A stretch of DNA of 64,000 nucleotides from Rickettsiales bacterium (lineage in GTDB: Bacteria; Pseudomonadota; Alphaproteobacteria; Rickettsiales; UBA3002). Positions 13,096 through 47,553 of the stretch are shown here, piece after piece. The stretch lies in NCBI GenBank assembly GCA_044237845.1, contig JBIIEL010000001.1, positions 86,173 through 150,172 on the forward strand, in the 5' to 3' direction. Made by a program: the position numbers and the translations under genes. Position 1 is the stretch's first letter; each line of letters opens with the position of its first letter. The notes beneath the pieces are model-generated. The model was not told where the DNA came from. It worked only from the letters and a program-made list of their open reading frames with translations, and made no database searches.

Positions 13096-14970
13096 ATGAG
13101 CCTTTCCGTTGCCAGTCCGCTTGAATCAACCACGCCGCGCGAGGCGTTGGTGATTCGCCGTTTGCCGACGGTGCTTGTCAACCAGATCGCGGCGGGGGAG
13201 GTGATCGAGCGCCCGTCCTCCGTGGTGAAGGAGCTGGTCGAAAATGCGATCGACGCCGGCGCGAGCGATGTGGATGTGGTGCTCGAGAATGGCGGGGTGA
13301 GCCTCATCCGCGTGCGCGATAACGGGCGCGGCATGAGCGCGGCGCAGCTGCCGCTGGCGGTGGAGCGCCACGCGACGAGCAAGCTGCCAGACGACGATCT
13401 GCTCGCGATTCATTTTATGGGTTTCCGCGGCGAGGCGTTGCCGTCCATCGGCTCCATCGCGCGGCTCTCCATCACCTCCCGCGCGCGCGGCAGTGCGGAT
13501 GCATTTGCGCTGACGGTTGAAGGCGGTGCGGTCGGCGCAGTCACCCCCGCTTCGCTCGGCGAGGGAACGCTGGTCGAGGTGCGTGACTTGTTTTACGCCA
13601 TTCCCGCGCGGCTGAAATTTTTGAAATCCGCGCGCACGGAAATCACGCAGGTGGTCGATATCATCGAGCGCCTCGCGATGGCGCATCCGGATATTCGCTT
13701 TCGCCTGAGCCATGATGGGCGCACGGTGCGCGACTTTCCGGCGCTCACACACGATTGGCTGAGCGCGGCGCCGCAGCGCTTAGAGAAAATTCTAGGCGCG
13801 GGATTCGCCGCCAACACGGTGGCGATTGATGCGGTGCGCGAGGGTATGCGCCTCACCGGGTTTGCGGGGCTGCCCACGTTCAACAAATCGACCTCACAAT
13901 CGCAGTATCTGTTTGTGAATCGCCGCCCGGTGCGCGACCGGCTGCTGCTCGGCGTCATCCGCGCGGCCTATCAGGACTACCTTGCGCGTGACCGCCACCC
14001 CGTCGCGGTGCTGTTCCTTGAGGTGCCGACGAGTGAGGTGGATGTGAACGTGCATCCCGCCAAGGCCGAAGTGCGCTTCCGCGACAGCCAGATGGTGCGC
14101 GGCCTGCTGCTCGGTGCCATCCGTGCGGCGATCGGCGCGACCTCGCAGCGCTCCAGCACCACGGTGGCGGAAGAGGCGCTGGGGGCGTTTCGGATTGAAG
14201 GGGGCATCGCCCCCTACGCGACTTCGTCGCTGACCCCACTCTCGCCAAGCGGCTCGCCATGGGAGGCTACGCACGATAATCACGAACGCTTGCAAGCGCT
14301 GCAGTCGCCGCTCTGGGGGCGGGATTATCTGCCGCCACAGCATCGCGCGCAGCAGCAGCCCACGACTCACCACTCACCACTCACCACTCACTACCCCCTC
14401 GGTGCCGCCGTCGCGCAGCTGCATAACACCTATGTCGTTGCCGAGACGAAAGACGGGTTGGTGCTGGTCGATCAGCACGCGGCGCATGAGCGGATTATGT
14501 ACGAGAAATTCAAGGCCGAGATGAACGCGGCAGGAGTGGCGCGGCAAATGCTGCTGCTGCCGGAAGTGGTGGATCTGAGCGACGCGCAGGCCGCGCGCAT
14601 CACCGCGCGGATGGAGGAATGGGCGCGGCTCGGCCTCGTGCTCGAAGGCTTTGGCGACACCACCGTGCTGGTGCGGGAGGTGCCAAGCATTCTGGGCGAC
14701 AGTGACGTGGCCGGGTTGGTGCGCGACCTCGCAGATGATTTGTCGCTCTATGAAGACGGGCTGGCGCTCGCCGATAAGCTCGAAGCCATCCTCAGCACTA
14801 TGGCCTGCCACGGCAGCGTGCGCGCCGGGCGGCCGCTACGCATCGACGAAATGAACGCCCTGCTGCGGCAGATGGAAGCCACGCCCTTCAGTGGCCAGTG
14901 CAACCATGGACGACCGACTTATGTCGCGCTCGCGAAGGCGGATGTGGAGCGGCTGTTTGGGCGGCGGTAA
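13096..14970 (+). CDS. mutL: DNA mismatch repair endonuclease MutL
   Basis: NQIAAGEVIERPSSVVKELVENAIDAG ATPase motif. C-terminal QHAAHERI and FSGQCNHGRPT. The linker carries two repeat elements. Confidence 0.95.
   Translation: MSLSVASPLESTTPREALVIRRLPTVLVNQIAAGEVIERPSSVVKELVENAIDAGASDVDVVLENGGVSLIRVRDNGRGMSAAQLPLAVERHATSKLPDDDLLAIHFMGFRGEALPSIGSIARLSITSRARGSADAFALTVEGGAVGAVTPASLGEGTLVEVRDLFYAIPARLKFLKSARTEITQVVDIIERLAMAHPDIRFRLSHDGRTVRDFPALTHDWLSAAPQRLEKILGAGFAANTVAIDAVREGMRLTGFAGLPTFNKSTSQSQYLFVNRRPVRDRLLLGVIRAAYQDYLARDRHPVAVLFLEVPTSEVDVNVHPAKAEVRFRDSQMVRGLLLGAIRAAIGATSQRSSTTVAEEALGAFRIEGGIAPYATSSLTPLSPSGSPWEATHDNHERLQALQSPLWGRDYLPPQHRAQQQPTTHHSPLTTHYPLGAAVAQLHNTYVVAETKDGLVLVDQHAAHERIMYEKFKAEMNAAGVARQMLLLPEVVDLSDAQAARITARMEEWARLGLVLEGFGDTTVLVREVPSILGDSDVAGLVRDLADDLSLYEDGLALADKLEAILSTMACHGSVRAGRPLRIDEMNALLRQMEATPFSGQCNHGRPTYVALAKADVERLFGRR
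14229..14274. repeat. dispersed in-frame element, copy in the mutL linker
   Basis: GCTGACCCC..CGGCTCGCCATGGGAGGCTACGCAC. Its 24-nt core is 22/24 identical to 47173..47196 and matches the reverse complement of 40941..40961 apart from a 3-nt indel. Confidence 0.75.
14362..14393. repeat. tandem heptanucleotide run (ACCACTC)n inside mutL
   Basis: ACGACTC ACCACTC ACCACTC ACCACTC AC is read in-frame as [11 protein letters not shown]. Same unit as 1601..1628. Confidence 0.85.
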
Positions 14971-14980
14971 TTGCTGCATG

Positions 14981-15081
14981 AAAATGGGCGATCTACGTCG
15001 TCCTCGTCGTGCTCGGTCAGTTACGTAGCGCTGCTACGCGCCTTCCCTGCGCGCGCCGACTCCTAGTATCTCACCCATTTT
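14981..15081. repeat. REP/MITE-like imperfect palindromic element, about 100 bp, copy 2
   Basis: Ends AAAATGGG...CCCATTTT. Central hairpin CGTAGC-GCT-GCTACG at 15024..15038. Lies directly after the mutL stop. Confidence 0.7.
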
Positions 15082-15097
15082 GACGCAGCGAAAAAGC

Positions 15098-15406
15098 CTA
15101 AAGAGGCGCAGATGACCTTTTTCTGTGTGTACGATTATAGCCGACCTGAGGTTCGTTTGACTTATTGGCCAGTATCAATTCGCTTTCTTTCCTAGTTACT
15201 TCATCTTTACTTTTTGACTCAAAAAGAATCTCTTTCCTGAGAGAGAAGCTTGATAACTCTTCCTTAGTAAAATCACTCTCTACTGTAGCGTTATCCCATG
15301 ATCCAAAATAGCGCATTGAGTGACCGCTTCCGCCAATATCTTTGCCGATGTAAATTTTGCCATTAGGGAACGTCAATTTATAAACGACATAGGCGAATTT
15401 TTTCAT
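15098..15406 (-). CDS. stand-alone GIY-YIG nuclease domain protein (I-TevI/Seg-like catalytic domain only)
   Basis: This is the AT-rich 3' part of ORF 15098..15679, starting at ATG 15406. It reads MKKFAYVVYKLTFPNGKIYIGKD...MRYFGS...RKESELILANKSNEPQVGYN. These parallel I-TevI blocks GIYQIKNTLNNKVYVGS, the Arg region, and ERENFWIKELNSKINGYN. 102 aa with no DNA-binding domain. Confidence 0.55.
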   Translation of the reverse strand: MKKFAYVVYKLTFPNGKIYIGKDIGGSGHSMRYFGSWDNATVESDFTKEELSSFSLRKEILFESKSKDEVTRKESELILANKSNEPQVGYNRTHRKRSSAPL

Positions 15407-46701: not shown

Positions 46702-46759
46702 TTTTGAGTCCTGTTAGTATATGTCACTATCCACTCTACGCGATTTTATGGGCGAGTTG

Positions 46760-46780
46760 TGTGAAGCTTTTGTGACAATT
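46760..46780 (-). promoter_or_regulatory. TCAC direct-repeat operator, site 3
   Basis: Sense strand reads AATTGTCACAAAAGCTTCACA, then 21 nt, then TAGAGT. An alternative TAAAAT lies 11 nt downstream. Confidence 0.5.
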
Positions 46781-46806
46781 GAGGGGTTCCGGGTTTCCAG
46801 AGCCTG

Positions 46807-47553
46807 TCACCCCGCCTTTTGCCAGACGAGGGTGACCCAGTCACCCAGCGTGAGGCGGGAGGTTAGCTCGAGGCTAAGCGATTGATAGGCGCCGCGGATT
46901 TGCGGTTCCTGCCAGAGGAAAATGCCCGAGAGAATGAGCACCCCACCCGGTGCGAGATGGCGCTCGGCATCGCCCGCGAGGGCGAGCAGCGGCGCGGCGA
47001 GGATGTTCATGGTAATGAGATCGAACGGCGCGGCGGCGGTGATGGCCGGGTGGGCAAACCCCTCGGCATGGATAGTATATATTCCTGAAGGGGGTCTTAT
47101 CCCGTTGACTCGTAAACTCGTCCTTTCCGCTTCGCTCCAAGACGCGCCAAGAGGCGCTGACCCCCGCCCTTCGGGCTCACCATGGGAGGCTACGCAAGGT
47201 GCGTCACCCTGTGCATAATCACTTATTTTTATGCCGTTTTCATGGGCATTGATGCGCACTATTTCAATGGCTTGTTTGGAGTTATCCACTGCCACCACGA
47301 AACATTTGAATAGCCGTATTATGGAAAATGCAAGAATGCCCGAACCGCAGCCGATATCGCAGGCGATGCGGGGGCAAAAGAGGGTGGGGTCGATGGATTC
47401 GAGCGCGGCGAGCACCCCCGCCGTGGTGGGGTGCGATCCATCGCCGAAACCATCCGCCCCGGCGGAAAGGGTGAGGGAGTTGTGGGTGTCCATCCGCCCC
47501 TCATAGCAGAGGATGTGGGTGCGATGGAAATTTTCTGTGTAGGCTTCCTCCAT
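46807..47553 (-). CDS. class I SAM-dependent methyltransferase, PrmA (L11 methyltransferase)-like, short form
   Basis: GDGSHPTT and DIGCGSGILA motifs, DLITMNILA. It lacks the usual PrmA N-terminal domain and carries an in-frame insertion of about 45 aa. Confidence 0.7.
   Translation of the reverse strand: MEEAYTENFHRTHILCYEGRMDTHNSLTLSAGADGFGDGSHPTTAGVLAALESIDPTLFCPRIACDIGCGSGILAFSIIRLFKCFVVAVDNSKQAIEIVRINAHENGIKISDYAQGDAPCVASHGEPEGRGSAPLGASWSEAERTSLRVNGIRPPSGIYTIHAEGFAHPAITAAAPFDLITMNILAAPLLALAGDAERHLAPGGVLILSGIFLWQEPQIRGAYQSLSLELTSRLTLGDWVTLVWQKAG
47156..47196. repeat. dispersed in-frame element, copy in the PrmA-like gene (read antisense to the other two copies)
   Basis: GCTGACCCCCGCCCTTCGGGCTCACCATGGGAGGCTACGCA. 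Translated on the minus strand as CVASHGEPEGRGSAP. Confidence 0.75.

Follow-up and report, generated by a model that had tools for sequence, protein, structure and literature searches.

Introduction

Repetitive extragenic palindromic sequences (REPs) of the GTAG-tagged class are defined by a short GC-rich stem-loop (with a stem of 5-13 bp) behind a GTAG tag, occur in compensatory subfamilies, form dimers and clusters, and lack terminal inverted repeats (TIRs) and target-site duplications (TSDs) (PMC3733652). Their intragenic copies encode 20-30 residues and are often found in genes for replication and repair (Di Nocera et al. 2013, PMC3733652), while tandem head-to-tail arrangements of tagged hairpins are called rare (PMC3733652). 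The Rickettsia palindromic elements (RPEs), RPE-1 to RPE-10 (Ogata et al. 2000, as summarised in PMC10969869 and PMC3733652), have been treated as an extreme case of in-frame insertion of the kind seen with transposable elements of the miniature inverted-repeat type (MITEs) (PMC10969869), and two of them, RPE-4 and RPE-6, are CGTC-tagged REPs (PMC3733652). Here we describe a dispersed hairpin element that resides in frame in three housekeeping genes, namely mutL, mnmC and a methyltransferase gene, of an uncultured Rickettsiales bacterium (GenBank assembly GCA_044237845.1, contig JBIIEL010000001.1, positions 86,173 to 150,172; this stretch of 64,000 nt is referred to as the window). The element represents a new family of a known kind, REP/RPE-like, and not a new kind of system. 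Its closest described class is that of the GTAG-tagged REPs with intragenic copies, which has some RPEs among its members (PMC3733652), rather than the RPEs alone. In our reading it belongs to the dispersed, non-autonomous DNA elements of the REP/RPE kind, with a probability of roughly 0.78.

Results

Four in-frame copies of a composite hairpin element

The window holds four copies of the element, one in mutL, two in mnmC and one in the gene for a PrmA-like methyltransferase, all of them in frame. The original prediction was built on a 24-nt core at 14250-14273(+) in mutL and 47173-47196(+) in the methyltransferase gene, with 22/24 identity between the two, and on a reverse-complemented copy with an exact 3-nt deletion (ATG) at 40941-40961(-) in mnmC. 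All three were recovered with these coordinates, this identity and this deletion, and the quoted peptides and the three host genes were correct. In dinucleotide-preserving shuffles of the window the 24-mer found no match, and the 12-mer GGAGGCTACGCA, present three times in the window, occurred at most twice. The proposed size of 24-50 nt, however, was too small. As evidenced by an alignment of the flanks of copies from related genomes, the full element comprises 75-100 nt and the core is its 3' end only; the element starts with TGAAGGGGG, about 55 nt 5' of the core (14196 and 47086). Three copies were likewise too few, since a profile built from the relatives' copies detected a fourth one at 40577-40684(+) in the mnmC linker, more diverged than the other three. 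When the whole window was scanned with a covariance model and filters were switched off, exactly these four emerged as significant copies (E 1e-25 to 8e-12), with the next match at E = 0.3.

In 5' to 3' direction the element consists of an AT-rich leader, TGAA, hairpin H1, T(A/T)CGC, an optional hairpin H2, TGACCCC, hairpin H3, GGCTC, hairpin H4, CTACGCA and an AT-rich tail, at a GC content of about 60-65%. H1 is GGGGGnnnnnCCCCC, an example of H2 is GCGGcttcgCCGC, H3 is either CCGcaagCGG or CCCttcGGG, and the variants of H4 include GCCatgggaGGC and GCGCcataaaGCGC, among others. The single-stranded motifs TGAA, T(A/T)CGC, TGACCCC, GGCTC and CTACGCA between the hairpins are strongly conserved, and in more than ten genomes TGAA, TGACCCC, GGCTC and CTACGCA are retained more strictly than the stems. 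CTACGC is found directly 3' of H4 in 29 of 31 copies, and H1 is followed by TACGC in 12 and by TTCGC in 15 of the same 31. On the complementary strand the element thus reads TGCGTAG-H4'...GCG(T/A)AG-H1'-TTCA, and both H1 and H4 are stems preceded by GCGTAG (or GCGAAG).

The copy in the MutL linker (14189..14293, +) has its core from TGAA to CTACGCA at 14196-14273, followed by the tail CGATAATCACGAACG, and scores 79.4 bits (E = 1.4e-24) with the covariance model. It encodes IEGGIAPYATSSLTPLSPSGSPWEATHDNHE. Its host, mutL (13096..14970, +), shows the Pfam domains HATPase_c_3, DNA_mis_repair and MutL_C, and an identical MutL including the insert is present in an independent assembly. The second copy (40577..40684, +; core 40589-40665; 82.3 bits, E = 1.5e-25) lies in the linker that joins the MnmD and MnmC domains of the bifunctional mnmC (39518..41458, -; Pfam Methyltransf_30 and DAO; PDB 3pvc, E = 1.9e-98). 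It contains the H4 variant GCGCCATAAAGCGC, and mnmC uses its opposite strand to give the peptide MRSALWREPVAAGVSAQRVGGKEPPS. The third copy (40920..41008, -; 45 bits, E = 8e-13) occupies a loop of the methyltransferase domain of MnmC, just before FLDGFAPAKNPDMW, and is read as SRLMGVSPPNPLPSGSPEATHDTNF. In its subfamily the hairpins are ordered H2-H1-H3-H4, as in locus L006 (L-numbers denote individual loci from other genomes), and its 3-nt deletion falls into the loop of H4. The fourth copy (47083..47232, +; 42.2 bits, E = 7.8e-12) is composite and decayed. Its H1 at 47086 is degenerate, it contains about 35 additional internal nucleotides, H2-H4 extend to 47196, and the tail includes ATAATCAC. 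The insert is a composite of 138 nt at about 47095-47232 and is read from the opposite strand, with the peptide ...CVASHGEPEGRGSAPLGASWSEAERTSLRVNGIRPP, by a gene for a PrmA-family S-adenosylmethionine-dependent methyltransferase (46807..47553, -; Pfam PrmA, 4.1e-30; alignment to the L023 orthologue).

The host reading frames run through every copy into conserved downstream domains. Note that the longest open reading frame for mnmC (39518-41704, -) is covered by homologues over only 89% of its length, so that translation probably begins at an internal ATG, at position 41458, roughly 82 codons further downstream. For the methyltransferase the probable start is Met21, where the alignment with the L023 orthologue sets in.

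The element in related genomes

A scan of 185,579 species genomes with the core was followed by two more pattern scans and an nhmmer profile. The relatives' sequence consisted of 8-kb blocks around the pattern matches, and all copy counts are lower bounds. Beyond the window, at least about 115 non-redundant copies were found at non-orthologous sites in at least 10 alphaproteobacterial metagenome-assembled genomes (MAGs). These are labelled 'uncultured Azospirillum sp.' (CAZGXX01, CAZOFC01), 'Alphaproteobacteria bacterium' or 'Rickettsiales bacterium', have about 60% GC, and encode MutL proteins that share no more than 58% identity with the MutL of any named genus retrieved. Carriers include CAZGXX (GCA_964530085.1), QFOX01, CANEUT01 and JAMHWA01. 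The original prediction would have fallen had the three copies stood alone, without similarity in their flanks; more than 100 copies in at least 10 MAGs, similar along the whole element, show the opposite.

At least 34 of these copies lie in frame within Pfam-verified genes, and the rest are intergenic or situated at gene ends, which makes for a high intragenic share of at least 30% of the sampled copies. Both inverted pairs and tandem pairs of the element are present. Outside the window, the hosts verified by Pfam are PriA (in four genomes, with five copies in the 883-residue protein of QFOX01), MutL, MutY (two genomes), RadA, XseA, PurH (three genomes), CarB (two sites), LeuRS (two genomes), a member of the TrmFO/GidA family, DapE, inositol monophosphatase (two genomes), an FNR-like reductase, an EPSP-synthase family protein, RsmE and KdsB. 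With MutL, MutY, PriA, RadA and XseA, replication and repair proteins account for 5 of about 17 host families, a raw count in which orthologous sites are non-independent. Their frequency echoes the bias reported for intragenic REPs (PMC3733652).

Within genes, copies are read from one strand or the other and in several frames, and two peptide readings are common, ...EGG(I/L)(A/T)P...(S/T)GSPWEATH... and ...CVA(SH)GEP...G(V)S...PPS. From the readings in both orientations together with the intergenic copies it follows that the conserved unit is the DNA and not the peptide. In plasmid and phage collections there was no real match to the element; a marginal 37-nt match to a Selenomonas plasmid (E = 1e-3) was set aside.

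Covariation in the hairpins

Covariation was tested on 31 full-length copies with 17 base pairs in the four local hairpins, against 500 shuffles. Standard pairs occupy 92.6% of the cells, compared with 48-59% when the partners are slid by 1-3 columns, and compensatory double changes occur in 9 of the 17 pairs. Not one of the 500 shuffles matched the observed pairing, the compensatory pairs and cells or the covariation score, while the number of further pair types in the 31-copy alignment was no higher than in shuffles. The covariation is carried by H1, H2 and H4, with H3 varying on one side only. H1 has 6 bp and displays switches from GC to AU and from CG to UA, and compensatory changes are also seen in H2 and H4. 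Being local palindromes, the hairpins form on either strand, and the rare G-U pairs reveal no strand preference. Single-sequence folding pointed to a long-range CCTCC/GGAGG helix, which was rejected because only 55.9% of its cells pair, no better than in shuffles.

Filled and empty orthologous sites

On the evidence of orthologue alignments, the inserts in MutL, MnmC and the methyltransferase are insertions and not ancestral sequence. In MnmC, the stretch from RVTLTLGFG to FLDGFAPAKNPDMW (site 1) measures 39 residues in about 100 of 120 homologues, as opposed to 66 in the window. MnmC from CAZGXX, a separate MAG, is 92% identical and has both inserts. A relative with 74% identity (L022) has a shorter and different sequence at site 1 and an empty site 2, another with 64% identity has an empty site 1, and some lineages contain reverse-reading inserts (GEPEG...) at site 1 of the window. 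The L023 orthologue of the methyltransferase (179 residues) aligns end to end with a single clean gap of 46 residues at the fourth copy. Orthologues at large thus do not share the peptides, which would have indicated ancestral sequence, and the idea of an RPE-like selfish repeat inserting in frame is supported by this and by the non-orthologous location of the copies.

For MutL, L144 (76% identical) has conserved flanks but unrelated DNA where the window has the element, and in CAZGXX only the 3' end of the element is left, the remainder being overwritten by a (GGTTCC)n palindromic repeat. An ancestral copy in L144 was considered and dropped: its peptide is faintly alike (SGNPYAAPHSG vs SGSPWEATHDN), with no detectable similarity in the DNA. 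The L144 linker might still represent a decayed remnant of the element.

In PurH, the window itself provides the empty site (16184..16214, -). A full element is present in the nearest relative, CAZGXX (L013, 2824-2919, adding 30 residues), and the element occurs in two other MAGs as well, whereas the window, whose PurH is 92% identical to that of CAZGXX, and the outgroup L144 both have a loop of canonical length without it. L013 is syntenic with the window over 13350-21367 at 89-92% nucleotide identity. The expected alignment of orthologues thus revealed empty sites for MnmC, the methyltransferase, MutL and PurH, but failed to yield insertion boundaries to the exact base.

The same positions are filled repeatedly in different lineages. 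The PurH loop with the AAW motif is filled in L013, L324 and L242, the PriA site CGPGVERIAEE..MF in L120, L275 and L246, and the MutL linker in the window and in L324; loops of inositol monophosphatase, LeuRS and MnmC are also re-used. Two sites hold the element at the same position in opposite orientation, one in MutY (L322 vs L279, in proteins with 57% identity) and one in PriA (L120 and L275 vs L246). Presence and absence disagree with protein similarity, in that the MutL proteins of L324 and L144 are 83% identical and only the former is filled. There must therefore have been repeated gains or seamless losses, and either implies mobility. The simplest reason for such hotspots would be that few loops are structurally permissive.

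The inserts in the host proteins

An AlphaFold2 model of MnmC from the window, calculated with 78 homologues, had a mean predicted local distance difference test score (pLDDT) of 90.6 and a predicted template-modelling score (pTM) of 0.91. Segments with pLDDT below 50 are limited to residues 157-163, 170-178 and 264-282, all of them coil and all located within insert 1 (150-183) or insert 2 (264-289), with confident helices and strands beside them. Residues 151-180 are coil with pLDDT values of 44-58. An alignment with the Yersinia MnmC structure 3pvc has gaps at the same two positions. At the level of the reading frames, those with a TGA (from TGAAGG) and a TAG (from GCGTAG) are closed in 97% of the copies, and the copies that survive in genes are presumably those in permissive frames.

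Other repeats in the window and in relatives

A second class of in-frame palindromic repeats consists of heptamer arrays, located in the window at 14350-14399 (MutL linker), 1530-1642 (intergenic) and 15828-15848 (purH). They are composed of (ACTCACC)n and of inverted (GGTGAAT/GGTGAGT)n arms, 1530-1550 facing 1601-1628, and encode 'TTHHSP...' or 'SWVVSGE' peptides. In MutL of CAZGXX, (GGTTCC)n and (GGAACCT)n arms are found instead (L013, about 790-830 and 1010-1050). Similar palindromic peptides in relatives are GGGSWVVSGEDKSRPTTHHTPHT in CarB (L042) and TSHQSPVASKQENLETRDWRLETP in PriA (L065).

The 5' module of the element, TGAAGGGGG-N5-7-CCCCCT(T/A)CGC, also heads an abundant and otherwise unrelated-looking multi-hairpin repeat in gut Oscillospiraceae. 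Its carriers, with loci in the range L026-L143, are 'Avoscillospira', 'Faecousia' and Clostridiales MAGs, often with the repeat at contig ends, and it reads ...GCAGCGGGGGAAGTG TGAAGGGGGCAAAAAGCCCCCTTCGCGTTCAATC... as a consensus, with AT-rich and GC-rich hairpins coming next. The module occurs in repeats of Myxococcota (L030, L046, L088) and Treponema (L027, L134, L143) as well. This sharing may be due to common ancestry, a common enzyme or coincidence, and the module, TGAAGGGGG-loop-CCCCCT(T/A)CGC, might, though this is improbable, be the recognition site of a widespread enzyme.

Compared with syntenic CAZGXX (L013, 7500-7542), about 96 additional nucleotides are present in frame at 20771-20909 of the window. 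They do not match the profile of the hairpin element and lie in an open reading frame of 1651 residues (18879-23834, -) for a GdhB-like large glutamate dehydrogenase, as judged by its GIGDMSGDVFGNG motif. An intergenic repeat of about 33-46 nt, (TATAGCACA...)GAAATGTGACAGTTTTGTGAAGATTTT, occurs at 33830-33875, 34911-34943 and 46755-46787 and inverted at 47849-47894. It is present on both sides of the methyltransferase gene and may be a shared promoter or operator. In the region 29000-30300, where the G+C content is lower (54%), small genes have been duplicated in tandem, the repeats being 63-94 nt long and 63-87% identical, and strong GC hairpins, AAAACCCTCCCCCGCAGGGCGGGGGAGGGT, are found beside this cluster at 29007-29040 and 29862-29895.

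Discussion

Relation to described repeat families

The resemblance to GTAG-tagged REPs extends to several features. A GC-rich stem-loop with a stem of about 6 bp, a loop of 3-5 nt and an unpaired GTAG in front of it is common to the two (in the element H1 and H4, on the reverse strand), both show compensatory stem subfamilies, and both occur as singletons, inverted pairs and clusters without TIRs or TSDs. Intragenic copies of either are frequent in replication and repair genes. The element differs in being a fixed composite of four hairpins with two tagged ones in tandem, and while REPs are mainly extragenic, at least 34 of at least about 115 sampled copies of the element are intragenic, in addition to all four in the window.

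Compared to the RPEs, the element is G+C-rich and is found in uncultured MAGs outside the genus Rickettsia; Rickettsia genomes are AT-rich. It is built from four short local hairpins with GTAG tags, unlike the CGTC-tagged RPE-4 and RPE-6. As far as the RPEs are portrayed in the summaries cited above, both are dispersed, hairpin-capable repeats of about 100 nt (about 100-150 bp is typical of RPEs) from an alphaproteobacterium, with many non-disruptive in-frame copies in unrelated housekeeping genes and others between genes, and the inserts of both map to surface loops. We have not filed the element as an RPE because its hosts are MAGs with 60% GC whose MutL is so distant from that of named genera; in sequence it is set apart from the RPEs by comparison with their description.

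Likenesses to MITEs such as the Coxiella QMITE, ERIC/RU and Correia/NEMIS are that all are small non-autonomous repeats, sometimes intragenic and then creating in-frame fusions. MITEs, however, are defined by TIRs and TSDs. In the element, the best complementary run between the ends is 6.67 nt on average, compared to 6.44 +/- 1.09 in shuffles, and the best direct run between the flanks is on average 6.63 nt, compared to 6.23 +/- 0.99. As neither exceeds the shuffles, a classical MITE was dropped as an option. Palindrome-associated elements derived from IS200/IS605 have subterminal hairpins, lack TIRs and TSDs, and are excised seamlessly. The element shares with them the hairpins and the absence of TIRs and TSDs, but its flanks show no conserved target tetra- or pentanucleotide beyond the AT-rich 5' flank and TGAA, and no TnpA was identified in the loci examined.

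A proposed mechanism of spread and retention

Insertions of the element would be filtered by selection, and intragenic copies would persist under three conditions: the copy lies in one of about four stop-free frames (TGA closing one and TAG another), its net length is divisible by three, and it resides in a surface loop or inter-domain linker, where a Gly/Pro/Ser/Ala-rich peptide of 25-46 residues can remain disordered and harmless. Through such a filter the same few permissive loops would be refilled across lineages, in either orientation. Movement, the least certain part of this model, may involve recognition of folded single-stranded DNA, as indicated by the conserved hairpins and GTAG tags in the absence of TIRs and target duplications. 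REP and bacterial interspersed mosaic (BIME) elements are mobilised by the REP-associated tyrosine transposase RAYT (TnpA-REP), a Y1/HUH transposase whose gene is typically flanked by REPs (REPtron). A trans-acting HUH/Y1 transposase of the RAYT or IS200-IS605 type is a likely candidate here, and the seamless excision that it might also perform would explain the empty sites of canonical length in some lineages.

Several observations weigh against this interpretation. A tblastn search with an E. coli RAYT sequence gave no match in the loci examined (8-kb blocks). About half of the H1 tags are GAAG instead of GTAG, and the stem of H4 has only 3-4 bp, both departures from the GTAG-tagged REPs. 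The folding energy of the whole element is only weakly better than that of shuffles (z of -0.1 to -2.3), and the structural case rests for this reason on covariation and not on thermodynamics. The element has 2.68 open frames, fewer than the 3.58 of shuffled sequence; selection to stay open in many frames was rejected on this ground, and the element gives no sign of coding adaptation. In the filled/empty pair for PurH the boundaries are not base-exact, with about 8-30 nt at the junction that cannot be aligned, and in MutL and PurH some few bases of the host gene were seemingly replaced at the site. Finally, the filled and empty patterns, when set against phylogeny, can be read as repeated gain or as loss.

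Alternative explanations

Spread without a transposase, by template switching promoted by hairpins, by replication slippage or by gene conversion between copies (the recombinogenic option of the original prediction), is unlikely in our view, but it accounts for part of the data: no transposase was found in the loci examined, nor TIRs or TSDs, and the host bases at MutL and PurH appear replaced instead of cleanly parted. The same linkers moreover hold other palindromic, microsatellite-like repeats that are not the same in close relatives, (ACTCACC)n in the window and (GGTTCC)n/(GGAACCT)n in CAZGXX. On the other hand, unpaired motifs that are stricter than the stems in more than ten genomes fit a protein recognition site better than passive copying, and the element sits at many non-homologous sites without shared flanking similarity. 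At the opposite extreme, it could be an active, seamlessly excising single-stranded DNA transposon that prefers, or is retained in, replication and repair genes beyond what mere survivorship would leave there and re-uses sites in either orientation, with gain and loss of inserts tuning the repair capacity of the host; this strikes us as improbable.

A functional structured RNA or cis-regulatory module, such as one that stabilises mRNA, is targeted by an RNase or makes translation pause, and that is maintained by selection wherever it has landed, would be in line with the covarying hairpins, with the many copies just upstream or downstream of genes, and with a proposal that REPs are RNA elements (PMC3733652). 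We nevertheless consider it very unlikely. Rfam 15 had no match at the gathering score in the window, and two individual copies gave only noise (E >= 0.9) at permissive E-values. The element lies within genes in both orientations, so that a transcript may carry either strand, and the rarity of G-U pairs with no visible strand preference speaks against an RNA as well. Scans for terminators and promoters around the copies found none.

Convergent or ancestral expansions of low-complexity loops, or a selected protein module in place of a DNA element, would suit the position of the inserts in variable loops and linkers, regions that often differ in length, yet this is already refuted by the intergenic and dual-orientation copies: the nucleotide identity goes far beyond what a peptide would need and extends to copies between genes, opposite strands or different frames of the same DNA yield unrelated peptides, and most orthologues lack the insert. 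Chimeric contigs from assembly or binning can practically be disregarded, for even though repeats may break or mis-join metagenome assemblies and the unrelated Oscillospiraceae family with the H1 motif is often found at contig ends, the host frames continue through every copy, the MutL with its insert was assembled independently in identical form, and a separate MAG has the orthologous MnmC inserts.

Implications

A non-autonomous DNA element of the REP/RPE kind thus remains our preferred interpretation. When selfish palindromic DNA settles in frame within essential genes, this is usually regarded as a curiosity of Rickettsia. Here a G+C-rich and unrelated family does likewise, on a comparable scale, in a free-standing uncultured lineage of Alphaproteobacteria. 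The phenomenon as such is documented elsewhere, and what is useful in the present case is its scale, the filled and empty pairs at about 90% identity, and the concentration in MutL, MutY, PriA, RadA and XseA, to which the re-use of sites in two orientations and up to five copies in a single helicase gene are added. This makes it a good system to study the way in which such elements move, the reason for the frequent hits in genes of replication and repair, and the extent to which proteins tolerate random loop insertions of 25-45 residues. In MAGs, inserts of this type inflate protein length, create spurious 'lineage-specific' motifs, and can confuse orthology assignment, annotation and structure prediction.

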